This document shows positions 16,119 to 58,861 of a stretch of 64,000 bases of DNA, piece after piece. The position numbers and the translations under genes were made by a program. Source of the stretch: Candidatus Nomurabacteria bacterium (lineage in GTDB: Bacteria; Patescibacteriota; Minisyncoccia; Phycocordibacterales; UBA918). Under the pieces are notes generated by a model that saw only the letters and a program-made list of their open reading frames with translations, had not been told where the DNA came from and made no database searches. The stretch covers positions 710,440 through 774,439 of the forward strand of contig CP060227.1 of the NCBI GenBank assembly GCA_023898525.1, written 5' to 3'. How positions within the stretch are numbered: position 1 is the first letter of the stretch; each line of letters begins with the position of its first letter.

Positions 16119-17500
16119 ATGCCCACCCTCCACCACCTCCTCCAAACCACCCTCACCTTCCTCTTCACCCTCACCCTCTCTTTTGTCAGTGTATACATCC
16201 CTCAACCATACCACCAAGTCAACCACGCCGAAGCCGGAGTCGCCACCTTCAGTGGTCAGTTGATGGGTCTGGCCGAACAAGCCGTCAGTGCCGCCGCCAA
16301 CGTGATGTCAGCGGCTATTGAGTCGGTCATCAGATTCAAGGAACTAGTCTGGGACCCCTTAGCCTGGAGTGTGGCCAAGGGCATGATCGCTGTCATGACT
16401 GCCAGTGTGGTCAGGTGGATCAACTCCGGTTTCCAAGGTTCCCCCGCCTTTGTCCAAGACCTGGAATACTACCTCTCCCGGGTTGGAGACCGAGTCTTTG
16501 GTGAATTCGTCAACGAACTCGGTATCGCCCCCTTTGTCTGCCGCCCCTTTAGACTTGACCTCCAAATCGCCCTCAACATCGGCTACCAAAGACACTACCG
16601 CGCCGGTTACCCAATTGGCGCCACCTACTGCAGCCTCGAAGGTGCTCTTGCCAACATCGACAACTTTGTTAACGGTAGCTTCAATGACGGTGGTTGGGAC
16701 ACTTGGTACACTGTCACCACCAGACCCAACACCTATACCCCCTATGGTAACTTCCTCTCCGTCAGTGGTGAAGCGGCTCTCAGAATCAACAACCAACAAG
16801 TTAACGCCACCCGTTTCCTAAACTTCGGTGACGGTTTCATGTCCAAAGCCATCTGTTCCCAAATCCCCATCATCACCGGCGGAGCGATTACCAGAGAACG
16901 TTGTGCTGTCTCTACTCCGGGACAAGTCATCAACCAAACTCTTAACCACCACCTTGGGGCCGGTCTCGACAGCCTCATCGCCGCTGATGAGATCGGTGAG
17001 ATCATTGGTGCTCTGGTGGGCCAACTGGCACAAAAGTCCCTGGAAGGCGCGGCCGGACTCCTTGGTCTCTCTGGTGGTACCGGCTACACCGACCCTAGCT
17101 ACGGTACCTCCTACCTGGATGCTGCTATTACCGAACAAACAGCCAGTTCTGCCGAAGCGGCTATCATCACCAACGCCAGCTCCACCAACGCCTACAACCA
17201 AGCGGCCAACCAAGCCGAACAACAAGGACAACAAAGAGCTGATAATGCACAGGCGGGAGCGGATAGTACGACGAATACTGGTAATACCGAACAACTATTG
17301 CAACAACTGATAGACATACTGGGAAGCGGAACTGTGATCACCCCAACTGACCCTAACACCACCACCCCACCAATTGGTCTTAGTGGTCCAATTGGACCGC
17401 AACCAATCACTGCTACTCCACTTTCCAGTGGTACCATCTTCGCTGCCCCTAATGGTTCCGGTACCGCTTGCTCTGAGGCGATGCCGTGTGATATTTGGAC
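16119..17500 (+). repeat. 1382-nt segment nucleotide-identical to 55368..56749 (N-terminal module of the beta-helix genes)
   Basis: Hand alignment over the leading bases shows identity beginning at the ATG (constant offset 39249). Identity ends after 'gatatttggac' (17501 g vs 56750 t). The embedded six-frame sub-ORFs (e.g. 16359..16799 = 55608..56048) translate identically. Confidence 0.85.
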
Positions 17501-18470
17501 GGCTATTGGTAAGGCAGGGGCGGGAGATGTGGTATTCCTAAGAGGGGGAACTTATCAGGTAACACAAAACATTCCTTTCTATAAACAAGGTACAGCCTCT
17601 AATCCAATAGTATTTGAAAGTTATCTGGGAGAGAAAGCGGTGTTTGACGGTAGTCAGCATGCGAAGGGGACTGGTGTACTTATACGAGTAAACGGAAAAT
17701 ACAATGTTCTTAGAAATATCGAAATTAGAAACATGCCAAGAGAAGGTATCTTTATAGAAGGTACAGACAATATATTGGATGGTGTATATGTTCATGGTAG
17801 CACCCTAGATGGCATCAAAGTCTTTAGTCCATACGCCAACTATCCGTACGGACAATACGGCTCTCGCAACACCATCCGCAACTGTATTGTCCACGACAGT
17901 TCTGATGCTGGATTAACCAGCGCCGGATTTGCTGACGGTGGACAGGCTGATGGTGTGTCAATAGCCTCTGGTGACAGTAACCGAGTGGAACATTGTTTGG
18001 TCTACCACAACTCTGATGACGGTATAGATGCTTGGCGTTCTACCAACACCTACTTTGGCTATAATATTGTTAGCTCTAACGGTATTGCTAGTGGTGACGG
18101 GAATGGTATTAAGGCCGGAAGTTCACAAGGTCAAAGCTTCAATACTCTGGCTGAACGTAATATTGTCTACTCTAACCGGGCTACTGCTCTGGACTATAAT
18201 GGAGGTACTAATGCTACTTTCCGCTATAATACCACTTGGCAAAATGGTCAAGCCCACACCTTCGGCGACGCTATCAATTCTGCTACTGCCAACATCTCCT
18301 CTAACGAACCTCTTGGCTTCATCTCCTCTGGCGCTCAATCTAAAGTCACCAACAACTCCTGGCAACGCTCTGGCACCGTCCAGTTCATCAGCACCAACCC
18401 AAGCTCACCAGACTTCTTAAGACCAACCGTGGGTGGAGGTTTTGAGGACATTGGAGCGTATGCGCAGTAG
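16119..18470 (+). CDS. large surface protein A: signal/TM anchor, conserved GC-rich N-terminal module, and right-handed parallel beta-helix C-terminal cassette
   Basis: Start set at 'MPTLHH' (ATG 16119) to match the paralogue at 55368. PbH1-type repeats ('NCIVHDSSDAGL', 'HNSDDGIDAWRSTNTYFGYNIV'). The cassette is bounded by '...GTIFAAPNGSGTACSEAMPCDIWTA' and the C-terminal tail 'NNSWQRSGTVQFISTNPSSPDFLRPTVGGGFEDIGAYAQ'. Confidence 0.75.
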   Translation: MPTLHHLLQTTLTFLFTLTLSFVSVYIPQPYHQVNHAEAGVATFSGQLMGLAEQAVSAAANVMSAAIESVIRFKELVWDPLAWSVAKGMIAVMTASVVRWINSGFQGSPAFVQDLEYYLSRVGDRVFGEFVNELGIAPFVCRPFRLDLQIALNIGYQRHYRAGYPIGATYCSLEGALANIDNFVNGSFNDGGWDTWYTVTTRPNTYTPYGNFLSVSGEAALRINNQQVNATRFLNFGDGFMSKAICSQIPIITGGAITRERCAVSTPGQVINQTLNHHLGAGLDSLIAADEIGEIIGALVGQLAQKSLEGAAGLLGLSGGTGYTDPSYGTSYLDAAITEQTASSAEAAIITNASSTNAYNQAANQAEQQGQQRADNAQAGADSTTNTGNTEQLLQQLIDILGSGTVITPTDPNTTTPPIGLSGPIGPQPITATPLSSGTIFAAPNGSGTACSEAMPCDIWTAIGKAGAGDVVFLRGGTYQVTQNIPFYKQGTASNPIVFESYLGEKAVFDGSQHAKGTGVLIRVNGKYNVLRNIEIRNMPREGIFIEGTDNILDGVYVHGSTLDGIKVFSPYANYPYGQYGSRNTIRNCIVHDSSDAGLTSAGFADGGQADGVSIASGDSNRVEHCLVYHNSDDGIDAWRSTNTYFGYNIVSSNGIASGDGNGIKAGSSQGQSFNTLAERNIVYSNRATALDYNGGTNATFRYNTTWQNGQAHTFGDAINSATANISSNEPLGFISSGAQSKVTNNSWQRSGTVQFISTNPSSPDFLRPTVGGGFEDIGAYAQ

Positions 18471-18586
18471 TGTTCTAAAGAATAGTGAACTATTACTTTA
18501 ATATCTGTGAGTGGTGTGATATATTTAAATAAGGAAAGTTGTTTGTGTTTCCTGCTCCTTTGACTATTTTTTTTGTGGAGGTTATC

Positions 18587-18742
18587 ATGAATAAGAAAAC
18601 ACAAGGCGGTAGTGGTGGTGCTTTTCGACCTAATAATGATGGTATTTCGTCAAGCATCCCCGGGTTTTTAGGTTATGGTGGCTCAGCTTATGTTTGCGAT
18701 TGCGGACAGTGCGGATATTGCCAGCAGAAGGCAAAAACTTGA
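18587..18742 (+). CDS. small Gly/Cys-rich peptide (51 aa), a possible secreted/bacteriocin-like or zinc-ribbon peptide
   Basis: RBS GGAGG (18577-18581) lies 5 nt before the ATG. Peptide 'MNKKTQGGSGGAFRPNNDGISSSIPGFLGYGGSAYVCDCGQCGYCQQKAKT'; two terminator hairpins follow. Confidence 0.4.
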   Translation: MNKKTQGGSGGAFRPNNDGISSSIPGFLGYGGSAYVCDCGQCGYCQQKAKT

Positions 18743-18763
18743 TTAATCGGCCTATTAAGAGGA

Positions 18764-18849
18764 AATCTCGGCTGTTTCGGCAGTCGAGATTATTTTATTT
18801 GTGGAGGGGTTTACCCCGCAAAAAGACAAAGTCTTTTTGCGGGGTAAAC
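18764..18849 (+). terminator. tandem terminator hairpins
   Basis: Hairpin 1 is AATCTCGGCTG-tttcgg-CAGtCGAGATT followed by a T-rich tract; hairpin 2 is GTTTACCCCGCAAAAAGAC-aaa-GTCTTTTTGCGGGGTAAAC. Confidence 0.55.
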
Positions 18850-18851
18850 GG

Positions 18852-18880
18852 TTGCCGAATATCTCTAAATACCGTATAGT
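18852..18880 (+). promoter_or_regulatory. sigma70-like promoter upstream of fusA (TTGCCG-17nt-TATAGT)
   Basis: -35 at 18852-18857, -10 TATAGT at 18875-18880, and a ~130-nt leader before fusA. Confidence 0.3.
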
Positions 18881-19011
18881 ATCGACGTTAAGCCTATTTG
18901 GCTTTTTCTTTTCTCCAAGACCACGCATTTGTGTTCTGTTGGTATGAAAGGGAGTATCACATTATTAATAGATACATATATTAAGTATTAAGTAATTTTT
19001 TAGTAAATTTT

Positions 19012-21174
19012 ATGGCACGAGAATTTCCAATTGATCGCATGCGCAACTTCGGTATTGTGGCGCACGTGGACGCTGGTAAAACTACTACCTCAGAACGCGT
19101 ACTTTTCTATACCGGTATGAGCCACAAGATCGGTGAGGTGCACGATGGAGCAACTGTTACCGACTGGATGGAGCAGGAGCGAGAGCGTGGTATTACTATT
19201 ACCGCGGCGGCTATTTCTTGTAACTGGTCAAAGACGATGGAGGCTGACCGCAAGGACAAGAGCAAAATGTTCACTTTCAACATTATTGATACTCCGGGAC
19301 ACATAGACTTTACAGCTGAAGTGAAGCGCTCCATGCGTGTGCTTGATGGCGCGGTGGTGGTATTTGATGGTGCAGCTGGAGTGGAGCCACAGACTGAGAC
19401 TAACTGGGGTTACGCTGACGAAGCTAATGTACCGCGTATTTGTTTTATCAACAAGATGGACAAGCTGGGGGCTGACTTCGATGCTTCAGTAAAATCCATT
19501 CACGATCGTTTGTCTAAGAAAGCAGTACGTATCCAGCTTCCAATTGGAGCAGAAAATGACATGAGTGGAGTAGTGGATCTAATAACCATGAAAGCTTATC
19601 GTTTTGGTGGTGAGATGGGAATGGATGTAACTGAGGAGGAAATCCCGGCTGATTTGCTTGATGAGGCTAAGAAATGGCGCGGTGAGTTGATTGAAAAGGT
19701 GGTAGAGCATGACGACGCTTTGATGGAAGCTTATCTGGGAGGTGAAGAGCCGAGTCTAGAAGATCTTAAGAAGACTCTACGTAAGGCTGTGATTGCTAAT
19801 GAGATATTTCCGATTATGACCGGTACTGCCCTAAAGAACATTGGTGTACAACTTGTACTTGATGCGGTGGTTGATTATCTGCCTTCACCGGTTGACTTGC
19901 CAGCGGTACAAGGGATTAATCCAAAGAATGATGAAGCGATTGAGCGAAAAGCTTCAGACGACGAACCTTTCTGTGCTCTAGCTTTCAAATTGCAGGATGA
20001 CAAATTTGTTGGTCAGCTGGCTTTCTTCCGTGTTTACTCTGGTACAGTCAAGTCTGGTTCTTATATTCTAAACGCTTCAACTGGGAACAAAGAAAGAGTC
20101 GGACGTATCGTGCGGCTTCAGGCTGATAAGCGAACTGAAATTGAAGAAGTATACGCAGGAGAAATTGCGGCGGCCGTAGGTATCAAGGAGGTAAAGACTT
20201 CACATACTCTATGTGATGAGGCTAATCCGATTATTCTTGAACAAATTACTTTCCCAGAACCGGTGGTGGCCCTACGAGTAGAGCCAAAGACCAAAAATGA
20301 CCAAGAAAAGATGAGTACTGCTCTAAAGCGCTTGTCTGATGAGGATCCGACCTTTAAGGTGTCTACCGATGAAGAAACTCTCGAAACTATTATTGCCGGT
20401 ATGGGTGAGCTACACCTAGATATTATCGTAGATCGTATGAAGCGAGAGTTTGGAGTTGAGGCCAACATCGGTGCGCCACAAGTGGCTTATCGAGAGACTA
20501 TCCAAGGTTCAGCTGAGGCAGAACACAAGTATGTCAAGCAGTCTGGTGGTCGTGGTCAGTATGGTCACGTGAAGATTCGTATCAAACCACTTGAGCCTTT
20601 AGCTGAAGATGAGACAGTGGCTAAAAATGTAACTCGTGAAGATCACTTTGAGTTTATTAACAATATTAAGGGAGGTGTGATTCCGCAGGAATATATTCCA
20701 GCTGTGATGAAGGGTTGTAAGGAAGCAATGGCTCGCGGTTATGTGGCTGGCTACAAGATGGAAGATGTATCAGTCGAGCTCTTTGATGGTTCTTACCACG
20801 ATGTAGACTCCTCAGAAATAGCTTTCAAACTAGCTGGTATTAACGCTTTCAAAGATGCGGCCAAGAAAGCTAATGCGGTTATTCTTGAACCAATTATGAA
20901 GGTGGAGGTACGTACACCAGATGAATATATGGGTGACATCAATGGAAATATTTCTTCAAAACGTGGACAGGTTGAAGGAACTGAAGAAATGGGTGGACGA
21001 ACTATTGTACACGCTAAAGTGCCACTGTCTGAGATGTTTGGTTACACCAATATTCTACGCTCTATGACCCAAGGTCGTGCCTCTATGACTATGGAGTTTG
21101 ATCACTATGAAGTCGTACCACCAAACGTAGCGATGGAAATCAAAAAAGCTCGTGGTGTTAAGGATGAGGGATAG
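19012..21174 (+). CDS. fusA: elongation factor G
   Basis: G-domain motifs '[10 protein letters not shown]', 'DTPGH', and 'NKMD'; 720 aa. Confidence 0.95.
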
Positions 21175-21203
21175 GAAAGAGTAAAACACTGACTAATGCA
21201 AAG

Positions 21204-21238
21204 AAAACCGCACACCCGAAGGGTGTGCGGTTTTCTGT
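21204..21238 (+). terminator. intrinsic terminator after fusA
   Basis: Hairpin AAAACCGCACACCC-gaa-GGGTGTGCGGTTTT followed by CTG. Confidence 0.65.
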
Positions 21239-21706
21239 TGGCAAATTAATAAGACCCCAGTTTTATTGGGGCCTACTTTAATTTTGGATTAAAAATCTAA
21301 ATAGCCATTGGCTCATTAAGTAGTAGTGAATCAACGCGTCTTGCATAATAAACATATACAGTCACTACAACATTTACGAATATCAGTTATCACAATGTGT
21401 TGTTTGGTTACTGATACCCCGTGCCTTCAGGTCGGGGTAGTTCATTATATAGGAGTAAACTAACGTTGGGCTATACTTTTAAGGTTAGTAACTGTAGGTC
21501 TTGCAAATCCCTGAGACTTTGGTACTATTGCCGAACCGCATACAGCTTAGTCTGTTTTTGTGGAGCGAACATAGTACTGCTCTTTCACACGTTCTCCGTG
21601 TCCATTCTAAGCGCGATTGTTCTCGCGCCGCCTAGAATGTACGCTGGAGACACAGCTTTTTAGCGTCTGTGTGCGGAATTATAATTATTAATTTATCTTT
21701 CATAAT

Positions 21707-22900
21707 ATGGCAGATGCATTTGATCGTTCAAAGCCGCACATTAACGTAGGAACCATTGGTCACGTAGACCACGGTAAGACTACTTTGACGGCTGCAATTC
21801 TTAACACTCTTAACACTCGCGGTAATGGCTACTCAGCTAACGTGAAGGCTGTTGAGGATATTGATAAGGCACCAGAAGAAAAAGCTCGAGGTATTACTAT
21901 TTCGCTCTCACACTCTGAGTACGAAACTCCAAATCGTCACTATGCGCACATCGACGCGCCTGGTCACGCTGACTACATTAAAAACATGATTACTGGTGCT
22001 GCCCAGATGGATGGCGCTGTACTTGTGGTAGCTGCCACTGATGGTGCGATGCCACAAACTCGTGAGCACGTTCTTCTTGCTAAGCAGGTTGGTGTACCAA
22101 AGATTATTGTTTTCTTGAACAAATGTGACATGGTAGATGATGAGGAAATGATCATGCTTGTTGAAGAAGAGCTTCGTGAGCTTCTAACTAATAATGGTTT
22201 TGATGGAGAAAATGCTCCAATCATAAAAGGTTCTGGTCTTAAGGCCCTTGAAGACCCTTCTTCAGAGTGGGGTGACAAGATTATTGAGTTGGCTGATGCT
22301 ATGGATTCATACTTCCCAACACCGGAACGTGATCTTGATAAGCCATTTTTGATGCCAATTGAGGACATCTTCTCAATTGAAGGACGAGGTACTGTAGTAA
22401 CTGGTCGTGTAGAGCGTGGTGCTGTAAAGGTTGGTGAAGAAGTAGAAATCGTTGGTATCAAGGATACTACAACCACTACCGTTACTGGTGTAGAAATGTT
22501 TAACAAGCAACTAGACGCTGCACAGGCTGGAGACAACGCTGGTATCTTGCTTCGTGGTACAAAGAAAGAAGATGTACACCGTGGTCAGGTATTGGCTAAA
22601 AAGGGTTCTGTAACTCCACATACTGAATTTGAAGCAGAAGTATACGTGCTTTCAAAGGATGAAGGTGGACGTCACACTCCTTTCTTCACTGGTTACAAGC
22701 CACAATTCTACATCCGAACTACTGACGTAACAGGAGATGTAACTCTAAACGAAGGTGTGGAAATGGTTATGCCAGGTGATACTGCAACCTTTAAGGTGAA
22801 ATTAGTAGCTCCAGTAGCGCTTGAAGATCAACAAAACTTTGCGATTCGCGAAGGTGGTAAAACAGTTGGTGCTGGTGTGGTAACTAAGATTATCGCTTAA
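21707..22900 (+). CDS. tuf: elongation factor Tu
   Basis: '[13 protein letters not shown]', 'DAPGHADY', and 'NKCD'; 397 aa. Confidence 0.95.
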
Positions 22901-22930
22901 ATTAATTTTTAGTTTAAACACAAAGTACTT

Positions 22931-23284: not shown

Positions 23285-23306
23285 TAGTGTTTGCCAAAAC
23301 AAAACA

Positions 23307-23340
23307 AAAGCCCCGCGCCTACGGCGCGAGGCTTTTGTTT
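23307..23340 (+). terminator. intrinsic terminator after rpsJ
   Basis: Hairpin GCCCCGCGCC-tac-GGCGCGAGGC followed by TTTTGTTT. Confidence 0.55.
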
Positions 23341-27438: not shown

Positions 27439-27702
27439 CTACCCATACAACTCACTATGCGTCCCAATCGCTACAAACCTCACTATCTCATTTTTTTCTA
27501 TAATTACATATATCGCTCTAGTATCTCCAGTCACATCTATACTAAAATAACCTCGCCATTTTCCGGAGAGTCGGTGATTACGCAGACTTGGATCTTGTGG
27601 GGTTTCAATAAATTTTTCTAAGACAACAATGACTTTCTTTTTTGTAGCTTTGGGAAGCTTTGCAAAGTCTTTCTCAAAACTTTTGGAAAGAATATATTGC
27701 AT
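27439..27702 (-). CDS. type II toxin, RelE/YafQ family mRNA interferase
   Basis: 'HRLSGKWRGYFSIDVTGDTRAIYVI...VRFVAIGTHSELYG' matches the YafQ/RelE pattern (H.L.G.W.GYR...D..LIY...RTGTHS.LF). Confidence 0.7.
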   Translation of the reverse strand: MQYILSKSFEKDFAKLPKATKKKVIVVLEKFIETPQDPSLRNHRLSGKWRGYFSIDVTGDTRAIYVIIEKNEIVRFVAIGTHSELYG

Positions 27703-27703
27703 A

Positions 27704-27985
27704 CTAGAGAGATTTTAGGTGAGTGATGAGGTCTTTTTCAGACTTGAATGGACCGACAAAGTCACCAGCTTCATATTCTTTTTGGGCTTGTTCCAAGATA
27801 CTTTCTAGGTATGGGGCAGGGCGGTGATTGCTAGCGGAAAGGGTGATTTCTTTATCGCGAACAAATTGCTTAAGAAAAGCATTGATTACTGTACTGAGTG
27901 GTACACCAAGTTCTTCGGCTACTTTTTTAGCTTCTTTCTTCAGAGCTTTGTCGGTTTTTACATTTAGGATAGTGTGTGTATTCAT
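27704..27985 (-). CDS. type II antitoxin, DinJ/RelB family (RHH)
   Basis: Start trimmed to 'MNTHTILNVKTDKALKKEAKKVAEELGVPLSTVINAFLKQFV' (DinJ-like). The gene sits 1 nt upstream of the toxin, in the classic antitoxin-toxin order. Confidence 0.7.
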   Translation of the reverse strand: MNTHTILNVKTDKALKKEAKKVAEELGVPLSTVINAFLKQFVRDKEITLSASNHRPAPYLESILEQAQKEYEAGDFVGPFKSEKDLITHLKSL

Positions 27986-37724: not shown

Positions 37725-37765
37725 TAATTTGGTTTTTTTAAACTTGATTTTAGTTACCAAGACAC

Positions 37766-37803
37766 GCAAAAACGCCGCCCATATATGGGCGGCGTTTTTG
37801 CGT
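37766..37803 (+). terminator. intrinsic terminator after rplE (left edge of island 2)
   Basis: Hairpin GCAAAAACGCCGCCC-atatat-GGGCGGCGTTTTTGC. Confidence 0.65.
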
Positions 37804-39327: not shown

Positions 39328-39361
39328 GTTTGGTTTTAAAAGGTAAAAAAAGTAAGAGGGT

Positions 39362-39400
39362 AAAACAAGTAGGGTGGCCGAAGGCCGCCCTACTTGTTTT
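39362..39400 (+). terminator. intrinsic terminator hairpin (copy 1 of a repeated element)
   Basis: AAAACAAGTAGGGTGGCC-gaa-GGCCGCCCTACTTGTTTT; differs at 2 positions from the copy at 41569..41607. Confidence 0.6.
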
Positions 39401-39444: not shown

Positions 39445-41551
39445 CTTATGTCAAATCCAGAAATAATAAAGTATGTAAAACAGCAGCTATCAGCTGGGTA
39501 CTCTAAAGAGAAAATAATCAAAGTTCTACTTTCAAGTGGTTGGAAAAAAGAAGATATTGACAATGCTTTTATAGAGGCTGAAGGAGGGGTTTATGAGTTA
39601 AATCAAACCGAAGGCATTACTGACTTACGGATAAATAACAGTTTGGAAGCTGCAGATAAAGAAGTTGTGGAGAAAGAAACTATTTCTGAGATAACTGAAC
39701 CAAAGGCTAACTTAACACCGGTTTTTAGTATTAGCGACAGTAATTGCCGGAGTTACTTTGTTTGGGGTTATTCAGATTAGCTACAATCAATCAATAATAT
39801 TTAATATTTTTAATCTCTTTGCCATACCAGCTTATGTGGTGGTCGGTATCTTGGTGTTTATATCACTGCGAATATTTAAACGTTTGTACAGAACTACAGG
39901 TAAATCCATCCGGTCTTTTTTGATGATTTTATCCACATACTTTTTAAGTATAATCGCTCTCATATATTTGTTTTATTTAGGAGTTGAACTCTATTCGGTT
40001 AACATACCCGGCACATCTATGTGGGGTTATTTCTTTGTAGCTGCGACTGCTGTACAGATATCTTATGCTGTATTTCATCTAGGTCTTGTCCTATTGATGG
40101 TTTTAATGATTAAGAACATTAAGAAAAAGCCAGTATCGGCATCGGCTGCTGAGTCGAGTCCAATGTTTGTGAAGATAAGTAATGTGACTATATCTATTGC
40201 TGTGTTGTTGCTTATTTATTTTCTGGGTTTGGTGTCTCCGCTTGCAAAAATGACGGGGTCGCAATCTTTATGTAGCCTCGTTTACCATACACATGTTAAG
40301 ACAGAGTGTTTAACGGAAAACTCTATAAATATTAAGGATTCGGTTTATAAAACTGAAGCGGGTAATTTTGGTGTCATTGTCGATGATGAAATGATAGGTG
40401 ATATTGAAGTGGTGGGCGATAAGATAGTTTATACTCTCGTGGAGCGTGAAATGGGCAATACTGTTGTATCTGTTGTTTATGATGGTAAGGTTTTGGGTGA
40501 ATATGAGGCTGTATACAGACTTACAGACCTAGATGGCAAATTAGCTTACTTGATTGAGAATAAAACAGGATCCAGAAGCCCGTATACTCTATTTTATGAT
40601 GGAGAAAAATATATGGATCTCAACAAAGATGTTTATGATTTAACAAATATAAATGGAAAGGTAGCCTTTAAGGTATATGATATGAATAACCCTTACGTAT
40701 ACTTTGATGGGAAGAATTATAACAATAATTATGTTTATGTAGATTTACTTATTGCTTATTCTGGTCAGCCAGCCTTTGTCGGCAAAAGAGATTCACAATA
40801 TTATATTGCAATAGGAGACCAGGAGTTTGGTCCTTATTCAGGTATGGGTACTTTGGATGAGAAAGACGGACACTTGTTTTCATTAATTATAAATAACGGA
40901 GACCTACAGGCTTTTGTGGACGGACAAGTTGGTTGGATAGGAAAAAAGTATAATGATGATAAGATCACATCCTTTGCTAATAATAGTAGCTTAGGAAAGG
41001 TGAGAAGGATAGTTGATCTAATTGACGGTCAGTTATCAACTGTTGTCAGCAAAAACGGTAAGGGCGTATTAGTTGTTGGAGATCAGGAAGTGACAGAAGT
41101 AGCCTCTTATGATTCCGGACCATATATTATTGACGGCAAGTTAGGTTACTTGGCTTTAAATAGCGACGGTTCATCACAATTTATGATTGATGATCAGATG
41201 GTGCCTAATAATATCTTTAATGAGCCTGTCTATGATGTGGCTGTATCAAAGTCAGGTAAAATTGCTGTCCAAACCAAAGATAAAAATGACGTTATCAGGG
41301 TCTATGTTGATGGACAGATTGTATATGAAGGAGGTGCTAGTATTAACAGTATACAAAAAGGTATAAATTTTGTAGGAGATAAGTTGCTTTTTAGTATCAC
41401 AGGAAGTGATGGGGTTTCGGATCTTTGGTATAACAACGCAATTATTAAAGGTAATTATCTAAATTTTAAACAAACTATTGCTTTGAATGATAAGTTATTG
41501 ATTTTTGCAGAGAAAAAAGATGGTAAGGGTATTATTTTGTTAGAACAGTGA
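39445..41551 (+). CDS. hypothetical multi-TM protein with a large beta-rich repeat ectodomain; apparent +1 frameshift at a T5 run (39722-39726)
   Basis: Frame-1 ORF (MSNPEIIKYVKQQLSAGYSKEKIIKV...) ends at 39780. Frame-2 upstream of the annotated 39758 start reads 'FLVLATVIAGVTLFGVIQ...' (TM helices) with no start codon. Deleting one T from the T5 run fuses the frames. The C-terminal domain has repeated 'YxDGK/VxDGQ' beta-strand modules. Confidence 0.45.
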
Positions 41552-41568
41552 TTTTAGTATGTGACTAT

Positions 41569-41607
41569 AAAACAAGTGGGGCGGCCGAAGGCCGCCCTAC
41601 TTGTTTT
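41569..41607 (+). terminator. intrinsic terminator hairpin (copy 2 of the repeated element)
   Basis: AAAACAAGTGGGGCGGCC-gaa-GGCCGCCCTACTTGTTTT. Confidence 0.6.
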
Positions 41608-51588: not shown

Positions 51589-52251
51589 TTATTTTTTTTC
51601 AATGTAAGTCTGTTTTAAAAACTTATCCCAAAATAGACTTAAAGCAACAAGTAAGATTACTTGTTGCAGAGTTGAGGTCAATCCAAAACTGCTGTAGATA
51701 TTGCCGTTGGCCGATAGTGTATATGGCTGCAGATATGTTTCGCTTTCCGGATTGGGTATATTTACATTTAGTTGACCATTAACGATCTGAATTAAAAAAC
51801 CGTTATTTCCTGAGTTGGACCGCTGTAATATATCATACCGAGCAGATGAATCATTTACCGTGAGTCTGGTGTGGTGTCGTAGCGCCTCTTTTTCACAATG
51901 ACTAAGTAATTTTTTACCCCCTGGTGAAACGGCTCCACTAATAATTTCCATTGCTGGGTTTGTAAAGTTGACGATAAGATCCAGACTAACCCGATTGAGA
52001 TTTCTAGTGGCCACCACCTCTACAAACATTAATTGTAGATCAGAACTTAACGCTAACTCTCTTATTTTATCTTGATCAGTAGTGTTTAATTCTACTATTA
52101 GATTGTTTAGGTTGCGCGTTAGGTTAGCTAACATTGATACTACCTCACCCAGGGCAAAGTTCGGGTATTGTTGATTACCTTGTTTTGCTTGACTAAAGTA
52201 AGGGAGTTTGATTCCAATTTCTGCCTGGTTATTCCCGTATAAGGTATCCAT
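51589..52251 (-). CDS. hypothetical protein with C-terminal TM
   Basis: 220-aa ORF; C-terminal hydrophobic 'LQQVILLVALSLFW'; overlaps the upstream ORF by 112 nt in another frame. Confidence 0.4.
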   Translation of the reverse strand: MDTLYGNNQAEIGIKLPYFSQAKQGNQQYPNFALGEVVSMLANLTRNLNNLIVELNTTDQDKIRELALSSDLQLMFVEVVATRNLNRVSLDLIVNFTNPAMEIISGAVSPGGKKLLSHCEKEALRHHTRLTVNDSSARYDILQRSNSGNNGFLIQIVNGQLNVNIPNPESETYLQPYTLSANGNIYSSFGLTSTLQQVILLVALSLFWDKFLKQTYIEKK

Positions 52252-52406
52252 ATTTTGTGGTTAAAGATACTCTTTAACTGATCGTTTCCTTGTCCATTTA
52301 AAACATGAATAAGCAATTTGTTGCTGATTATTACGACCAGGCCACTTTCAGTTGCAATGATTTTGTACATTTCTGGTATGTCACCATTAAGTTTTCCTAA
52401 TTCCAT
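52140..52406 (-). CDS. hypothetical protein (possible N-terminal part of 51589..52251, disrupted at an A-run)
   Basis: 88-aa ORF. Inserting one A in 'CACAAAATATGG' (minus strand, ~52241-52248) fuses it in frame to 'MDTLYGNN...'. Confidence 0.3.
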   Translation of the reverse strand: MELGKLNGDIPEMYKIIATESGLVVIISNKLLIHVLNGQGNDQLKSIFNHKIWIPYTGITRQKLESNSLTLVKQNKVINNTRTLPWVR

Positions 52407-52537
52407 CTTCCTAACTCCAAAAAAAAGTTATTGAAAACTACTTCCGCCAGCTAAATTACCACACATATAATTTAAAGCAATAGCTTGAATAATGGGCATT
52501 AAATAGCTATACTGCCAGTAAATTTTAAACAAATATT

Positions 52538-53143
52538 ATGAAAAAATTACCACATCAAGAGAGGACTTTTATTATTTTAAAACCAGATACGGTTCAGCGT
52601 AGTTTGGTTGGTGAAGCGATCAAGAGAATCGAGCGAACCGGTCTTAAGTGTACAGCTATGAAGATGTTTGTGCCGGACGAGGAAAGACTGCTTAAGCACT
52701 ACAACAAATCTGACGAGTGGTTTTTGAAAAAGGGAACTAACGTCGTGGAAGACCTTAAAGCTCAGGGTTTGCCGGTTGATAAGGAGCCGATTGAGTACGG
52801 CCGTGACATTATCCGTACTATCGTAACCTACATGACAGCCGGTCCGGTCGTGGCGATGGTTTGGGAGGGTAATCAGGCAGTCAAGGTCGTGACTAAGATT
52901 GTTGGTACCACTGAGCCTGCTACTTCAGATGTTGGAACTATCCGTGGTGATTATACAATTGACTCCTATGGGCACGCTTCATTTGAGAATCGCGCCGTGC
53001 GAAACTTGGTGCACTGTTCTGATGCGGTGGAGGAAGCCGAACGAGAAATTGCGATTTGGTTTACTGAGGGTGAGGTTATGCAATATGCTACTGCTCAAGA
53101 AAGGATTATGTATGATGTAAACTTGGATGGTAAGGATGAGTAA
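52538..53143 (+). CDS. ndk: nucleoside diphosphate kinase (long form)
   Basis: 'ERTFIILKPDTVQRSLVGEAIKRIERTGL', 'GTIRGDY', and 'NLVHCSDAVEEAEREIAIWF' (active-site His). Confidence 0.75.
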   Translation: MKKLPHQERTFIILKPDTVQRSLVGEAIKRIERTGLKCTAMKMFVPDEERLLKHYNKSDEWFLKKGTNVVEDLKAQGLPVDKEPIEYGRDIIRTIVTYMTAGPVVAMVWEGNQAVKVVTKIVGTTEPATSDVGTIRGDYTIDSYGHASFENRAVRNLVHCSDAVEEAEREIAIWFTEGEVMQYATAQERIMYDVNLDGKDE

Positions 53144-53163
53144 TTGAGGGGTTGGGATGAGGA

Positions 53164-53206
53164 AATCAAAGACCGGAAAGCGAAGCTTTCCGGTCTTTGA
53201 TTTTTA
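53164..53206 (+). terminator. intrinsic terminator after ndk
   Basis: Hairpin AATCAAAGACCGGAAAGC-gaa-GCTTTCCGGTCTTTGATTTTT. Confidence 0.7.
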
Positions 53207-53246
53207 TAAATTGCCTAAAAATACGTTCGGGTGTAAAATTACTGAA

Positions 53247-53438
53247 GGAACCACAAATAACGTATGTTCCGATTAAACATACACGCAGGGTTGCCAGCAG
53301 TCGCAAGTGATAATGAGAACTTTATGGAGAATTTCATAGAGATTTCAGACCTCATTTGGAAATGGTACCCACCTGGATTTTCCAGGAGCATGCGTAAGTG
53401 GTTCCCGTGAAAAAACACCTCGATGAGAGGTGTTTTTT
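53247..53438 (+). ncRNA. candidate structured RNA (riboswitch-like 5' leader or sRNA) ending in an intrinsic terminator
   Basis: Long-range closing stem GGAACCAC..ACGTATG (53247-53266) pairs with CATGCGT..GTGGTTCC (53389-53405). There is an internal hairpin CCTGGA-tttt-TCCAGG. Terminator AAAAACACCTC-gatgag-GAGGTGTTTTTT (53410-53438) lies 28 nt before the next ATG. Class unassigned. Confidence 0.3.
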
Positions 53439-53465
53439 CACGCTCATTTAGAGTATTATAAAGTT

Positions 53466-53852
53466 ATGATTAAGAATATTTCTTTGTTGACAGTGGTTGT
53501 GTTGTGGTTAGTATTTGCGACGGCTCATGCTTTCTTCAAAACAACAGAGCTATATTGGTTTTATCTATGGCTTGATATCCCGATGCATTTGGCTGGTGGT
53601 TTTTTAGTGGTGATGACTTGGTTTGTTTTGCAAAGGAGGTTTATAGCGGGTGAAAAAATTTTTAGTCAAAAATTTTTTCACCCGCTCATCATCCTCGCCA
53701 TCATGATGGTTGCTTGGGAAATATATAAATATATGATTGGCGATATTGTTATGGACAATTATGTATCCGATACCATCCTTGATCTGATAATGGGTACGGT
53801 AGGTGGACTAATTGCTTTTAAGTTATTCTTATCACGTACAATAGACAAATAA
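53466..53852 (+). CDS. small hypothetical membrane protein (4 TM)
   Basis: Start trimmed to 'MIKNISLLTVVVLWLVFA'; hydrophobic helices throughout; no CrcB or SMR motifs. Confidence 0.45.
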   Translation: MIKNISLLTVVVLWLVFATAHAFFKTTELYWFYLWLDIPMHLAGGFLVVMTWFVLQRRFIAGEKIFSQKFFHPLIILAIMMVAWEIYKYMIGDIVMDNYVSDTILDLIMGTVGGLIAFKLFLSRTIDK

Positions 53853-53855
53853 TTT

Positions 53856-55217
53856 ATGCAATCAACTTTAGGATTTTACGGAGGAGTAGGGTCGGTGACA
53901 GGGGCAAATTTTATGTTAGACACCGGTAAGGTGGCTATCTTGGTTGATTGTGGTTTGGTACAAGGGGACTGTTTTGCAATGGAGAAAAACGCTGAGCCTT
54001 TTGTTTATGATCCAGCTCATATTGATGTGCTACTGGTCACTCATGCGCACGCTGATCATATTGGTCGTATTCCTAAGCTGGTACGCGATGGTTTTAAGGG
54101 AGTTATTTATAGTACCGAGCCGACCAGAGAGTTAACTGGTGTGATGTTGCAAGACGCTCTTAAGGTAATGGAGTATGAGGCTAAGCGTTATGGGGTAGAG
54201 GTTTTGTATGATAAACACAACATCGACTCAGCGCTTGGACTGTGGCAAAGTGTTGACTACGAGGAAGTGATTGGCTTATCAGACAATGTTGAGGCCTGGT
54301 TCACCGACGCGGGTCATATACTAGGATCTGCTATGGTACATCTAAAACGAGGTGATAAGAAAATAGTCTTTACAGGTGATATCGGCAACATACCCCAACC
54401 GCTCCTTAAGGCGCCAGTTATCCCTAAGGATTATGATTATCTGGTAATGGAAAGTGTGTATGGTGATCGTTTGCACGAAGAGGTGGAAGAAAGAACTGCC
54501 TTACTTCGACATCATATAGAAGAGACACAAAAGAGAAAGGGAACACTGATCATCCCGGCTTTCTCCTTAGAACGTACGCAAGGTATGCTCTATGAAATTA
54601 ACAACATGGTGGAAGCGGGAGAGGTTGATCCGCTGCCTGTCTTTCTTGATTCACCACTCGCCATTACAGTTACTGATATTTATCGTGGGTTTACTCGGTA
54701 CTTAAGACCAGAGATACAAGACCAAATAAGAAACGGCGATGACATATTCGATTTTTCCGGTCTTAAGTTTACCGAAACTAAGAAAGATTCTGAATCAATT
54801 TCGCGGGTTGACGATCCAAAGATTATTATTGCCGGTTCTGGTATGAGTCATGGTGGCCGGATTTTAAAACACGAAAGAGACTATCTTGGTGATCCAAAGA
54901 CAACTCTGCTTTTGGTTGGTTATCAGGCAGTGGGTAGTATGGGTAGGCTGCTCCAAGACGGAGCTAAGACTATAAATATAGACGGTAGCAAGGTGAAGGT
55001 GCGGGCTCAGGTGGCACAAATCCGTGGTTATTCCGGACACGCTGACCGAGACCAGCTTTTGGAGTTGGTGGCCCATGGTGGTGACAAAGCCAAACAAATA
55101 TTTGTCACAATGGGGGAAGAGCGTTCGTCACTGTTTTTGACTCAGCGCTTACATGATTATTTAGGCTTAAATGCCGTAGCGCCGGATCTGAATCAGGAAG
55201 TAGTGATAGAGTTTTAA
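53856..55217 (+). CDS. MBL-fold beta-CASP family RNA-metabolising hydrolase (RNase J/CPSF-like)
   Basis: 'VLLVTHAHADHIGRIPKL' (HxHxDH) and 'GYSGHADRDQLLELV' (beta-CASP C-terminal motif). Confidence 0.75.
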   Translation: MQSTLGFYGGVGSVTGANFMLDTGKVAILVDCGLVQGDCFAMEKNAEPFVYDPAHIDVLLVTHAHADHIGRIPKLVRDGFKGVIYSTEPTRELTGVMLQDALKVMEYEAKRYGVEVLYDKHNIDSALGLWQSVDYEEVIGLSDNVEAWFTDAGHILGSAMVHLKRGDKKIVFTGDIGNIPQPLLKAPVIPKDYDYLVMESVYGDRLHEEVEERTALLRHHIEETQKRKGTLIIPAFSLERTQGMLYEINNMVEAGEVDPLPVFLDSPLAITVTDIYRGFTRYLRPEIQDQIRNGDDIFDFSGLKFTETKKDSESISRVDDPKIIIAGSGMSHGGRILKHERDYLGDPKTTLLLVGYQAVGSMGRLLQDGAKTINIDGSKVKVRAQVAQIRGYSGHADRDQLLELVAHGGDKAKQIFVTMGEERSSLFLTQRLHDYLGLNAVAPDLNQEVVIEF

Positions 55218-55367
55218 AAAACTAAACCCCCGTGCCGTAGGCGAGGGGTCAATCCATCTTTTATGATTTTTGTTAATATAACAAGCTCCTAATACACACA
55301 CCATCAATAAAATCAGGCATAATCTCTACATTTCATTGCTATAATAATAAAATAACCCACATTATCT

Positions 55368-57989
55368 ATGCCCACCCTCCACCACCTCCTCCAAACCACC
55401 CTCACCTTCCTCTTCACCCTCACCCTCTCTTTTGTCAGTGTATACATCCCTCAACCATACCACCAAGTCAACCACGCCGAAGCCGGAGTCGCCACCTTCA
55501 GTGGTCAGTTGATGGGTCTGGCCGAACAAGCCGTCAGTGCCGCCGCCAACGTGATGTCAGCGGCTATTGAGTCGGTCATCAGATTCAAGGAACTAGTCTG
55601 GGACCCCTTAGCCTGGAGTGTGGCCAAGGGCATGATCGCTGTCATGACTGCCAGTGTGGTCAGGTGGATCAACTCCGGTTTCCAAGGTTCCCCCGCCTTT
55701 GTCCAAGACCTGGAATACTACCTCTCCCGGGTTGGAGACCGAGTCTTTGGTGAATTCGTCAACGAACTCGGTATCGCCCCCTTTGTCTGCCGCCCCTTTA
55801 GACTTGACCTCCAAATCGCCCTCAACATCGGCTACCAAAGACACTACCGCGCCGGTTACCCAATTGGCGCCACCTACTGCAGCCTCGAAGGTGCTCTTGC
55901 CAACATCGACAACTTTGTTAACGGTAGCTTCAATGACGGTGGTTGGGACACTTGGTACACTGTCACCACCAGACCCAACACCTATACCCCCTATGGTAAC
56001 TTCCTCTCCGTCAGTGGTGAAGCGGCTCTCAGAATCAACAACCAACAAGTTAACGCCACCCGTTTCCTAAACTTCGGTGACGGTTTCATGTCCAAAGCCA
56101 TCTGTTCCCAAATCCCCATCATCACCGGCGGAGCGATTACCAGAGAACGTTGTGCTGTCTCTACTCCGGGACAAGTCATCAACCAAACTCTTAACCACCA
56201 CCTTGGGGCCGGTCTCGACAGCCTCATCGCCGCTGATGAGATCGGTGAGATCATTGGTGCTCTGGTGGGCCAACTGGCACAAAAGTCCCTGGAAGGCGCG
56301 GCCGGACTCCTTGGTCTCTCTGGTGGTACCGGCTACACCGACCCTAGCTACGGTACCTCCTACCTGGATGCTGCTATTACCGAACAAACAGCCAGTTCTG
56401 CCGAAGCGGCTATCATCACCAACGCCAGCTCCACCAACGCCTACAACCAAGCGGCCAACCAAGCCGAACAACAAGGACAACAAAGAGCTGATAATGCACA
56501 GGCGGGAGCGGATAGTACGACGAATACTGGTAATACCGAACAACTATTGCAACAACTGATAGACATACTGGGAAGCGGAACTGTGATCACCCCAACTGAC
56601 CCTAACACCACCACCCCACCAATTGGTCTTAGTGGTCCAATTGGACCGCAACCAATCACTGCTACTCCACTTTCCAGTGGTACCATCTTCGCTGCCCCTA
56701 ATGGTTCCGGTACCGCTTGCTCTGAGGCGATGCCGTGTGATATTTGGACTGCAGCGGCTAAGGCCAAGGCGGGAGATGTGGTATTCCTTAGAGGGGGAAC
56801 TTACAATATTACAAGGCGAATAACTATGGATAACCAAGGTACCGCCTCCAACCCGGTGATCTATGAGAGTTACCCAGGGGAGAAGGCGGTGTTTGATGGT
56901 AGTCAGCATGTAAAGGGGACTAATGTTTGGTTAAGAATCTCTGGCAAGTTTATCAAGTTGCGTAACTTAGAAGTTAAAAACATGCCAAGAGAAGGTGTGT
57001 TTATAAGTGGTACTGATAATATAGTCGAAGGTTTAAATGTTCATGGAAGTGGTCTGAGCGGTATACACATATTCAGTCCCTATGAAGCGTACCCTTATGG
57101 TCAATATGGCTCTAGAAACACAATTATTAACAATACTGTTTATGACAGTTCAGATGTAGGTCTTGCTTCTGGCGGTATTGGTAATGGAGGAAACGCAGAT
57201 GGCATAAAGATTTCAAGTGGAGGTGATAACAAAATAAAGAACAATCTAGTATACAAGAACTCCGATGATGGTATTGACGCTTGGCGATCGACCAATACTT
57301 ATATTGGTTACAATATTGTTCATTCAAGTGGTCTTGGAGATGGTGATGGTAACGGTATTAAGGCTGGAGGTAAGTCTCCTAGTTCAGGTACATATGTTGA
57401 ACGAAATATATCATACTCAAATAAGTCAAGTGGTATTGATCACAACACAGGTGTTAATTTAACTTTTATCAATAATACTACCTGGAATAATCCTGTTGGT
57501 TATAGAATAGGTTCTGATACAAAAGCTATTAATAACATCGCAGCAGAAACCAGTATATTTGGTGTCGGTACCCAAACCAACAACTCCTGGCAACACTCCG
57601 ATACTCTTCAGTTCATCAGTACCGACCCTAACTCACCTGACTTCTTAAGACCGACAGTTGGAGGAGGATTTGAGGATATTGGAGTGTATGGTACCGGTGG
57701 TGGTACTACTCAGACACCTACTCCACCAACCCCAACCCCTACTCCAATTGGTCTTGGTGGCCCAATCGGCCCACAACCAGTCACTGCTACCGCTCTAGCT
57801 AAAGGTACTATCTTTGCTGCCCCTAACGGCTCCGGTACCGCTTGCTCAGACGCTAATCCTTGCGACATCTGGACAGCAGTTGGCAAAGCGGGTGCAGGGG
57901 ATGTGGTGTTCTTGAGAGGGGGAACATACAGGTTAAATGGTATTTTAGACATATCAAAGCACGGTACCGCATCAAACCAAACCCGATAA
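55368..57989 (+). CDS. large surface protein B: same N-terminal module as gene A plus a divergent beta-helix cassette B1; terminated by a frameshift at the start of a second cassette
   Basis: The first 1382 nt are identical to 16119..17500. Cassette B1 'DIWTAAAKAKAGDVVFLRGGTYNITRR...NNSWQHSDTLQFISTDPNSPDFLRPTVGGGFEDIGVYG' is followed by linker 'TGGGTTQTPTPPTPTPTPIGLGGPIGPQP' and the start of cassette B2. The stop at 57987 results from an AAACC-AAACC tandem duplication. Confidence 0.7.
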   Translation: MPTLHHLLQTTLTFLFTLTLSFVSVYIPQPYHQVNHAEAGVATFSGQLMGLAEQAVSAAANVMSAAIESVIRFKELVWDPLAWSVAKGMIAVMTASVVRWINSGFQGSPAFVQDLEYYLSRVGDRVFGEFVNELGIAPFVCRPFRLDLQIALNIGYQRHYRAGYPIGATYCSLEGALANIDNFVNGSFNDGGWDTWYTVTTRPNTYTPYGNFLSVSGEAALRINNQQVNATRFLNFGDGFMSKAICSQIPIITGGAITRERCAVSTPGQVINQTLNHHLGAGLDSLIAADEIGEIIGALVGQLAQKSLEGAAGLLGLSGGTGYTDPSYGTSYLDAAITEQTASSAEAAIITNASSTNAYNQAANQAEQQGQQRADNAQAGADSTTNTGNTEQLLQQLIDILGSGTVITPTDPNTTTPPIGLSGPIGPQPITATPLSSGTIFAAPNGSGTACSEAMPCDIWTAAAKAKAGDVVFLRGGTYNITRRITMDNQGTASNPVIYESYPGEKAVFDGSQHVKGTNVWLRISGKFIKLRNLEVKNMPREGVFISGTDNIVEGLNVHGSGLSGIHIFSPYEAYPYGQYGSRNTIINNTVYDSSDVGLASGGIGNGGNADGIKISSGGDNKIKNNLVYKNSDDGIDAWRSTNTYIGYNIVHSSGLGDGDGNGIKAGGKSPSSGTYVERNISYSNKSSGIDHNTGVNLTFINNTTWNNPVGYRIGSDTKAINNIAAETSIFGVGTQTNNSWQHSDTLQFISTDPNSPDFLRPTVGGGFEDIGVYGTGGGTTQTPTPPTPTPTPIGLGGPIGPQPVTATALAKGTIFAAPNGSGTACSDANPCDIWTAVGKAGAGDVVFLRGGTYRLNGILDISKHGTASNQTR

Positions 57990-58861
57990 CATTTGAAAGC
58001 TACCCGGGGCAGAAAGCGGTGTTTGATGGCAGTAATCATCCTCGTGGTGCTAATATTAAAATTAGAATTAGCGGTAGCTTCATTCATTTTAGAAATATTG
58101 AAATCAGAAATATGCCAAAAGAAGGTATAATGATTGAAGGTTTTTCTGGAACCCAAACAGCTGGTAACGACAATTTAATTGAGGGAGTTACCGTGCATAA
58201 TAATGGATTGTCTGGAATACATGTATTTAGTCCTTACGATGAATATCCATATGGTGCCTTTGGCTCACGAAATGTTATACGAAATTGTACAGTCTATAGA
58301 AATTCTGATTATACTGGTGATCCTACTAGTGGCGGTAATGCAGATGGTATTAAGATATCTAGTGGTGATTCAAACCGTGTCGAAAACTGCATAAGCTATG
58401 AAAACTCTGACGACGGAATTGATGCGTGGCGATCTACTAATACTTACTTTGGTTATAATATTTCCTATGGAAACGGTATCAATAACCCAGGTCATGATGG
58501 TAATGGTATAAAGGCTGGCGGCATATCAGCGATTACTAATGGAACAATTGTCGAGAGAAACCTAATTTATAATAACCTAGGTTATGGTGGTATTATTCAT
58601 AACAATGGTAAGGATCTGACATTTATAAATAATACTGTATGGAATAATGCGAATTATAGTATTGCTCATTCAAAAGAGGTGGTTAGTCGCAACAATATAG
58701 CTGTTGGACAGTTAGGGCCTAGTAATCCAGCGGTAGCTACCAACAACTCCTGGCAACGCTCCGGCACCGTAGAGTTCATCAGTACCAACCCAAGCTCACC
58801 AGACTTCCTAAGACCAACCGTCGGGGGAGGGTTTGAGGATATTGGGGTGTATGCGCAGTAG
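57744..58861 (+). pseudogene. frameshifted, promoterless third beta-helix cassette (B2), a 'silent cassette' candidate
   Basis: The cassette begins with the conserved junction 'PIGLGGPIGPQPVTATALAKGTIFAAPNGSGTACSDANPCDIWTA' in the gene-B frame and continues after the frameshift in ORF 57860..58861 ('PITFESYPGQKAVFDG...NNSWQRSGTVEFISTNPSSPDFLRPTVGGGFEDIGVYAQ'). Confidence 0.55.

Follow-up and report, generated by a model that had tools for sequence, protein, structure and literature searches.

An identical N-terminal module on diverged PL9-type lyase domains in a Candidatus Nomurabacteria genome: probable gene conversion rather than programmed cassette switching

Concerted evolution of paralogous genes by gene conversion is established in bacteria (for example, the tufA/tufB pair), as is GC-biased gene conversion (gBGC). 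Among the family 9 polysaccharide lyases (PL9), Pel9A uses Asp209, Asp233 and Asp237 as Ca2+ ligands and Lys273 as the catalytic base (PMC10992409). In Patescibacteria, a type IV secretion system (T4SS)-like system is widespread; a survey of it lists VirB4, TrsD, VirB3, VirB6, VirB2-like pilins and other components, and T4SS genes are reported to be essential for epibiotic growth in Saccharimonadia (PMC12102498). The 64,000-nt stretch analysed here (the window) belongs to a Candidatus Nomurabacteria (Paceibacteria, candidate phyla radiation or CPR) metagenome-assembled genome of 1,087,875 bp (contig CP060227.1, positions 710,440 to 774,439). Two of its genes, A and B, share an identical N-terminal module (the N-module), whose relatives lie beside T4SS-like genes in other Paceibacteria, and continue into different PL9 domains (A in the first; B1 and B2 in the second). 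It is probable that these genes belong to an envelope-anchored lyase family that has evolved by duplication, mosaic recombination and recent gene conversion, with no programmed switching; the locus looks like a case of ordinary gene conversion in a small recombining enzyme family, not of programmed cassette switching.

Position-by-position comparison of 16118-17500 with 55367-56749 gives 0 mismatches over 1383 nt at an offset of 39249, the identity running from 1 nt 5' of the ATG to about 20 codons inside the beta-helix (PL9) domain in both genes. The 60 bases 5' of the two copies are ~30% identical (the random level); past the first mismatch (17501/56750), identity falls to 80%, then to 60-70% and lower. 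Other than a single palindrome, nothing else in the window repeats a 31-mer. An earlier reading of the letters alone (the first-pass annotation) had noted 1382 nt of exact N-terminal identity 39 kb apart, followed by divergence into different beta-helix domains, and both observations are confirmed, at 1383 nt counted from ATG-1 and with Pfam PF13229 in all three domains. The recent conversion or duplication that it proposed is indeed needed to place 1383 identical nt beside domains with ~31-35% nucleotide difference. The features concerned are given below (aa, amino acids; GC3, GC content at third codon positions; ORF, open reading frame).

16118-17500, plus strand: exact repeat copy 1, from the gene A start codon to about 20 codons into PL9 (direct comparison)
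55367-56749, plus strand: exact repeat copy 2, from the gene B start codon on (direct comparison)
16119-18470, plus strand: gene A (USN87456.1 / MCB9811216.1), 783 aa, with N-module, linker and one PL9 domain
16137-16193, plus strand: hydrophobic helix at the N-terminus (aa 7-25), with the YxPQP and AEA motifs after it; predicted signal anchor or signal peptide
16119-17132, plus strand: N-module core (aa 1-338), with WINSGFxGSPxFVQD and the (near-)invariant cysteines C141, C171, C246 and C262; GC3 ~0.64; near-identical in a third gene, C
17133-17438, plus strand: low-complexity linker rich in Q, A, N, T and P, in place of the canonical alpha-helical C-terminal tail (alignment)
17439-18467, plus strand: PL9 domain A, with predicted Ca2+ ligands D611, D633 and D637 and predicted base K665 (18111-18113)
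55368-58861, plus strand: gene B before its frameshift, with N-module, PL9 domain (B1), Thr/Pro linker and PL9 domain (B2)
55368-57989, plus strand: gene B as annotated, USN87506.1 (873 aa, stop codon 57987-57989), the B2 fragment being annotated separately as USN87507.1 (249 aa)
56688-57689, plus strand: PL9 domain B1, with D611, D633, D637 and K665 (B numbering)
57750-58861, plus strand: PL9 domain B2, out of the B1 frame; catalytic residues D991, D1013, D1017 and K1047 intact in the repaired ORF
57974-57983, plus strand: 5-nt tandem duplication (AAACC, AAACC), which frameshifts gene B about 80 codons into B2; also present in the assemblies L005 and L006
58892-58928, no strand assigned: terminator-like 17-bp hairpin 3' of B2
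15206-16108, plus strand: gene for a conserved 300-aa membrane protein; of 80 Paceibacteria loci, 73 have it 5' of the N-module gene

The lyase family of this genome comprises at least four genes, with five PL9 domains and one PL1-like domain, and the N-module is present in at least three copies. The third copy is that of gene C (USN87532.1, 880 aa, outside the window), the first 338 residues of which differ from those of A and B by I251L only. After aa 338 there follow a patchily identical linker and a PL1-like pectate lyase (9BUJ, E=1.4e-34; VexL, 6FI2). The first-pass picture of a constant N-module with different beta-helix domains is borne out, and made stronger still by the unrelated PL1-like lyase of gene C. 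In gene D (USN87528.1, 1178 aa), a signal peptide of its own precedes a PL9 domain, CARDB, a second PL9 domain and two PG_binding_1 (peptidoglycan-binding) domains. Among the best 150 of 5475 matches (in a search of 1.84 billion representatives), fusion of the N-module with a lyase occurs in this genome alone; other family members bear different C-terminal extensions, such as Fib_succ_major. No close relatives or strain variants of gene C were found in GTDB-representative genomes, and the JGI metagenomes gave no match for an exact 50-mer and none for gene A. As side observations, genes D and C (P0242 and P0244) lie about 21-25 genes downstream of B2, the lyase part of gene C carries thrombospondin-type Ca-binding repeats, and the lyase genes take up ~1% of the 1.09-Mb genome.

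Base composition sets the shared part of these genes apart. The GC3 of the N-core (aa 1-360) is 0.64, compared to 0.355 +/- 0.053 for the 53 other ORFs of the window (maximum 0.48; z=5.4), and exceeds that of UvrD by 0.29, a difference that ranges from -0.15 to +0.11 in 68 single-copy orthologues. It drops to 0.33-0.38 at aa 361-440, about where the identity to gene C ends; thus, the stretch common to A, B and C is the compositionally odd part. GC-biased conversion of a repeatedly converted N-core would, we infer, be the likeliest cause of the raised GC3. In its other reading frames and on its complementary strand, the N-module (16359-17310) contains several spurious ORFs of 138-160 aa, a by-product of its high GC; they recur at 55608-56559 because they lie inside the repeat.

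Recombination has also left marks in the PL9 domains. At protein level, the first PL9 domain of gene D (D1) is a mosaic: as far as alignment column 265 it resembles A (39 vs 14 informative sites), and beyond that point B2 (6 vs 26), with shared indels; the breakpoint has a Fisher p of 1.2e-6, or ~2e-3 after correction for ~1800 tests. A further breakpoint is seen in B2 near column 125 (p=5.6e-7, protein level), and the tails of D1 and D2 are 94% identical, set against 58% overall. The mosaic patches among PL9 domains are only 70-90% identical. In the DNA of A, B1 and B2 beyond the exact tract there are no significant identity runs (longest-run permutation p = 0.24-0.90), nor is 5' versus 3' heterogeneity significant (p = 0.18). 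The PL9 exchanges are therefore old, which leaves the 1383-nt tract as the sole visible event of recent date.

Profile and alignment identify the cassettes as polysaccharide lyase domains of PL9 type in which the catalytic residues are intact. Pfam assigns Beta_helix (PF13229) to A, B1 and B2, and PF13229 or PF22842 to their homologues. A search with cassette A retrieved homologues of 100% coverage at 50-58% identity, which are stand-alone secreted proteins (of Polyangiaceae, 'Deltaproteobacteria', Nitrosomonas and others). The profile search of the cassettes that the first-pass annotation had proposed proved productive: a profile built from A, B1, B2 and 21 homologues matches Pel9A (1RU4) with E=6.6e-36 over chain residues 14-349 of 400, and the rhamnogalacturonan lyase 5OLQ with E=2e-14. 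The four Pel9A residues, which correspond to chain positions 184, 208, 212 and 248 after a 25-residue signal-peptide offset, sit on family-invariant columns of the HMMER alignment (D611, D633, D637 and K665 in A and B1, with equivalents in B2). With the Ca2+ ligands and catalytic lysine kept, the three domains are predicted to depolymerise uronic-acid polysaccharides by beta-elimination; their lyase activity, polyuronide substrate and surface location are all putative. The cassettes had been described as 'tailspike-like or polysaccharide-lyase-like', of which the second term fits the PL9 match and the first was imprecise; identity with a phage tailspike was rejected, there being no PHROG match. 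Pairwise protein identity among A, B1 and B2 is 63-69%, a divergence of 31-37% in place of the ~50% given earlier. In a neighbour-joining tree of PL9 domains, A, B1, B2 and D1 cluster weakly (37%), and D2 joins a foreign domain.

The N-module (aa 1-338) belongs to a large Paceibacteria family (365 matches in the first search; 417 confirmed loci in species-representative genomes), typical members of which are 460-570 aa long. They have in common a single N-terminal hydrophobic helix, the YxPQP, AEA and WINSGFxGSPxFVQD motifs, four (near-)invariant cysteines, a Gly-rich GLLGLSGGTGYT segment and a helical C-terminal tail ending in a conserved Trp; in A and B, this tail is swapped for the Q/A/N/T/P-rich linker and the lyase domains. 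The helix, the only hydrophobic one, reaches its Kyte-Doolittle maximum of 1.63 at aa 7-25, AlphaFold2 models a helix at residues 2-26 (predicted local distance difference test, pLDDT, 88-96), and Y26, P28 and A39 are invariant. These features point to a membrane-anchored envelope protein, with a predicted extracytoplasmic domain that contains cysteines and is mostly helical. No match to the N-module was found in Pfam, NCBIfam, PHROGs or PDB sequences.

Synteny was compared in 80 Paceibacteria species loci, of which six end within ~1.7 kb of the N-module match, leaving 74 informative. The order UvrD, KsgA, 300-aa membrane protein, N-module, TrbL_3 (VirB6-like), PrgI (VirB3-like), TraC-like and VirB4 holds in all of these (74/74), and a PL9 domain is present in none of the loci (0/80). 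Between species, the N-module is 30-57% identical, as compared to 49-85% for UvrD and 54-94% for VirB4; on these comparisons, the N-module family is a conserved but fast-evolving Paceibacteria protein. VirB4 identity of 84-94% was also noted across more than 100 protein clusters, the block from UvrD to VirB4 being essentially invariant in the class. The N-module shows no homology to any named T4SS protein of the VirB1-11, Prg or Trs families, and the family is not described in the Patescibacteria T4SS survey (PMC12102498). From its position and sequence features, the N-module is likely to be an exposed, cargo-bearing protein next to the Patescibacteria T4SS genes.

By position, gene A is orthologous to the N-module gene of Paceibacteria, its upstream side being the canonical one (ComM, LysM/M23, UvrD, KsgA and the 300-aa gene; 58-85% identity to the nearest relative). 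Homologues of TrbL_3, PrgI, TraC-like and VirB4 proteins are absent from the entire 64 kb; the VirB4 of this genome (USN87330.1, 94% identical to that of the relative) is 126 accession numbers before gene A. Downstream, gene A is followed by a 51-aa ORF and EF-G, and B2 by the terminator-like hairpin and rplT. EF-G (19012-21174) occupies the place at which every related genome has the VirB6-like gene, with the synteny breakpoint at 18471-19011. The 51-aa ORF (18587-18742, plus strand) is Cys-rich (…CDCGQCGYCQQKAKT) and is called in the NCBI draft (L008 12469-12624); it gave no family match.

Each cassette is bracketed by conserved sequences, which the first-pass annotation took for recombination flanks. 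Its estimates of their DNA identity (~80% for the junctions, ~85-90% for the tails) agree with those obtained here, i.e., 75-95% among copies of the 5' junction and 78-91% among copies of the 3' tail. Nevertheless, their interpretation as conserved recombination flanks does not hold, since they are family-wide PL9 termini, present in Polyangiaceae, Nitrosomonas and others at 50-58% identity. Alignment locates both the 5' motif (IGPQPV..T.L..GT.FAAP.GSGT.CS.A.PCD.WTA) and the 3' motif (NNSWQRSG.V.F.STDP.S.DFLRPT.GGGFEDIGAYA) in proteins of other phyla; P0121 of Polyangiaceae, for example, has IGPQSVVPTSLSQGTIFAAPKGSGNACSEASPCDIWTA at its start and DNSWQRSGSVTFISTNPKSNDFLKPTVGGGFEDIGAHAP at its end. 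As stand-alone proteins of other phyla carry the same motifs, the flanks are conserved termini of the PL9 domain family rather than recombination sites particular to the cassettes. Where residues are identical, codon identity is 0.6-0.8 at the domain ends and 0.25-0.55 in the interior, and the higher value at the ends leaves room for some homogenisation there.

The second cassette of gene B had been described as frameshifted and silent. A third beta-helix ORF (57860-58861) does lie in a different frame from gene B, and relative to A and B1, B2 carries a 5-nt insertion; with one copy of the tandem duplication removed, a single 1162-aa ORF results. Gene B is a tandem-lyase gene that was recently truncated, with B2 as its second, originally in-frame domain; no terminator-like site was found between B1 and B2, and tandem PL9 proteins occur elsewhere (e.g., P0243 and P0246). 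Hence, the frameshift of the earlier description stands, as the 5-nt duplication, and its silent promoterless donor falls. Programmed ribosomal frameshifting at the duplication was considered and rejected, no slippery site being recognisable (by inspection only).

In the explanation favoured here, the N-module gene would have parted from its T4SS-like neighbours and come to exist in at least three copies, in which a low-complexity linker and lyases have taken the place of the original tail. The resulting fusions would be A with one PL9 domain, B with two (the second broken by the 5-nt duplication) and C with one PL1-like domain. The N-module may act as an anchor showing the lyases at the cell surface, an end that gene D apparently reaches through its peptidoglycan-binding domains, and the lyases may cut acidic polysaccharides, whether host capsule or exopolysaccharide (EPS) or environmental pectin-like polymers. 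The 1383-nt identity would be the footprint of recent non-reciprocal homologous recombination (gene conversion) between paralogues, which would keep the anchors identical and the enzymes different; the lyase domains would be older paralogues, diverged and now and then trading segments. On its 3' side the tract would end within the first PL9 turn, which is strongly conserved, and on its 5' side it would reach the start codon because homology ends there. Since A and B carry direct repeats, a reciprocal crossover between them would delete 39 kb with EF-G, EF-Tu and ribosomal-protein genes, and only conversion products should therefore persist. Conversion rather than a one-off duplication is what we infer.

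Several observations weigh against this explanation and have to be set beside its rivals. A tract that reaches the first base of homology is unusual, as strand invasion normally needs flanking homology, and a precise duplication/fusion event, unlikely in our estimate, would be another source of the tract. Conversion among all copies, genes C and D included, is argued from protein identity only. The GC3 excess could stem from horizontal replacement by a GC-richer allele; against this, the protein that matches the N-module best comes from the syntenic gene of the nearest relative, which has a GC3 of 0.41, and the family members rich in GC are less closely related. The location of the N-module and its link to the T4SS-like system have synteny and sequence features as their basis. 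The structure prediction that the first-pass annotation had suggested for the N-module brought little, two AlphaFold2 runs giving low pLDDT (52 and 65) and fold searches with the models finding nothing. Lastly, the assemblies L005 and L006, from two runs, both start at 57656, in the B1 tail; no 31-mer around this position recurs within the window, and the stretch must therefore occur in other sequence of the sample (a paralogue or a strain variant of the B1/B2 junction). An exact repeat of 1.38 kb exceeds the short-read insert size, which would favour an artefact of assembly or polishing, with one junction chimeric or two diverged copies made alike; such an origin is highly improbable. An 81-kb contig of GCA_020632175.1, an independent draft assembly, matches 6119-28470 at 100% and so crosses copy A with both its flanks, and the per-run unitig L007 starts at 17471, exactly k-1 bases 5' of the divergence point, as expected of a true two-way branch. 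L005 and L006 match 57656-59854 at 100%, the 5-nt duplication included. All of this makes a chimeric assembly unlikely, and wherever the two sequencing runs and two assemblies overlap the reference, they show the same arrangement. Furthermore, the path from upstream of A through the N-module, cassette A, 37 kb and the second N-module to cassette B is the sole linear path taking all edges; any alternative resolution would strand a 39-kb circle with EF-G, EF-Tu and the S10 ribosomal-protein operon. The same module with a single aa change in gene C also argues against an artefact. As for the duplication/fusion event, it would be recent and one-off, the 5' 1.38 kb of A (or B) taking the place of the signal-peptide end in a pre-existing gene for a secreted tandem-PL9 protein similar to gene D, with the right join made by recombination in the PL9 head, the left join illegitimate at the start codon and no ongoing concerted evolution. 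We regard it as having a small but appreciable probability. It agrees with identity that begins at exactly ATG-1 without upstream homology, with the existence of tandem-PL9 genes with their own signal peptide in this genome (gene D) and elsewhere (P0243), and with the restriction of the fusion to this genome among the matches considered above. Nevertheless, it demands a precise illegitimate join at the start codon, and it leaves unexplained both the third near-identical N-module, on a non-homologous PL1-like lyase with a patchy linker, and a GC3 excess limited to the part common to the three copies.

Programmed cassette switching of the pilE/pilS or Rhs/CdiA kind, as the first-pass annotation had envisaged, would act at the conserved flanks with B2 as a silent donor and would generate variation of a surface enzyme within the population. 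A constant N-module with three different C-terminal lyase arrangements in one genome, an identity tract that ends within the conserved head motif, PL9 domains that are mosaic with tails homogenised within and between genes, and a unitig break, as yet unexplained, that two runs show where B1 meets B2 are all in its favour. It is nonetheless a very unlikely explanation. The flanks occur family-wide in unrelated phyla and are thus explained by protein constraint. What disrupts B2 is a 5-nt duplication within an otherwise in-frame domain, and it lacks the 5' truncation of a silent copy. The cassettes number only three to five, without a donor bank, and no other silent 5'-truncated cassette copy is present in the 64 kb. 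The pilE/pilS logic fails for want of such a bank and of a G-quadruplex (G4) element, a G3+N1-7 x4 motif being absent from both strands of the window. Likewise, the Rhs/CdiA logic finds neither toxin/immunity pairs or immunity-like genes nor the VENN or PxxxxDPxGL motif (regular-expression search of A and repaired B). The identity runs of A, B1 and B2 beyond the tract are insignificant, as given above, the mosaic patches must be old, being only 70-90% identical, and the arrangement is the same in two sequencing runs and two assemblies. A related reading, in which the N-module is an exposed cargo-bearing T4SS part and homologous recombination between identical N-modules and mosaic lyase domains re-assorts surface depolymerases such that cells differ in the host or environmental polysaccharide they cut, is improbable as well. 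Its traces would be the point near the B1/B2 junction at which the unitigs break and the 5-nt duplication, which looks reversible; if true, a CPR bacterium would possess a system for varying its host range or its 'antigenic' surface.

Elsewhere in the window, two GC-rich palindromes of 40 nt (AAAACAAGTAGGGTGGCCGAAGGCCGCCCTACTTGTTTT; 39361-39400 and 41568-41607, 95% identical) bracket the ORF 39758-41551, and another perfect palindrome is present at 37764-37803; the three are probably bidirectional terminators of a shared type. A toxin-antitoxin pair of ParE/RelB type is encoded on the minus strand at ~27439-27985 (L008 21321-21867), just 3' of the S10/L3/L4/L23/L2 genes.

For the T4SS-like system, the locus offers a candidate surface-exposed component: an unnamed conserved neighbour of VirB6 and VirB4 that is fast-evolving, has extracytoplasmic features and appears able to carry enzymatic cargo. 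The cargo here consists of three arrangements of predicted pectate-lyase-type depolymerases in a 1.09-Mb genome. Their candidate activity is the cleavage of acidic capsule or EPS, which could let an ultra-small cell feed or gain access to a host surface. If the conversion reading is right, this reduced genome would also offer a clean natural case of concerted evolution that is restricted to one module and marked by a GC3 signature. There is no evidence here for a new recombination mechanism; the locus is a combination of known kinds, i.e., the PL9/PL1 lyase family, concerted evolution and the recruitment of a T4SS-linked protein.

Set beside the described systems, the likeness to Neisseria pilE/pilS is superficial, comprising a constant 5' part, variable 3' parts and conserved borders; here, a bank of silent 5'-truncated copies and a G4 initiator are missing, and the border motifs are kept for protein reasons. 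Rhs/CdiA systems are similar in joining a conserved N-terminal carrier to alternative C-terminal domains (the N-module family also occurs with Fib_succ_major), but the C-termini in the present case are polysaccharide lyases instead of toxins, with no immunity genes and no demarcation motif. The VirB2 pilin arrays of Patescibacteria, Bartonella and Anaplasma (PMC12102498) likewise multiply a T4SS-linked surface part, possibly matching different host surfaces; they are tandem, highly divergent small pilins with a mean identity of 25%, whereas in this genome the T4SS-linked part is identical and the appended enzymes vary. With the Patescibacteria chromosomal T4SS (MPF-FATA-like; Quinonero-Coronel et al., 2025; PMC12102498), the connection is through the relatives, in which the N-module gene belongs to the same VirB6/VirB3(PrgI)/TrsD-TraC-like/VirB4 block; here, it lies apart from the T4SS genes, occurs in several copies and is joined to lyases, and it matches no component listed. 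Pel9A and PL9 lyases (1RU4; BT4170-type 5OLQ) resemble the cassettes in full-length homology, the right-handed beta-helix, the Ca2+ aspartates and the catalytic lysine; in contrast to Pel9A, PL9 is here fused behind a membrane-anchored CPR-specific module and in gene B is in tandem, and the nearest relatives of the cassettes are uncharacterised proteins of Polyangiaceae, Nitrosomonas and others. From the usual concerted evolution the locus differs in that the putative conversion homogenises the N-module only, the enzyme domains being different. Yet it shares with concerted evolution by gene conversion a sharp-edged identity tract in diverged paralogues, confined to the homologous region, together with a mosaic remainder, and with gBGC-accompanied cases the raised GC3 of the repeatedly shared part.

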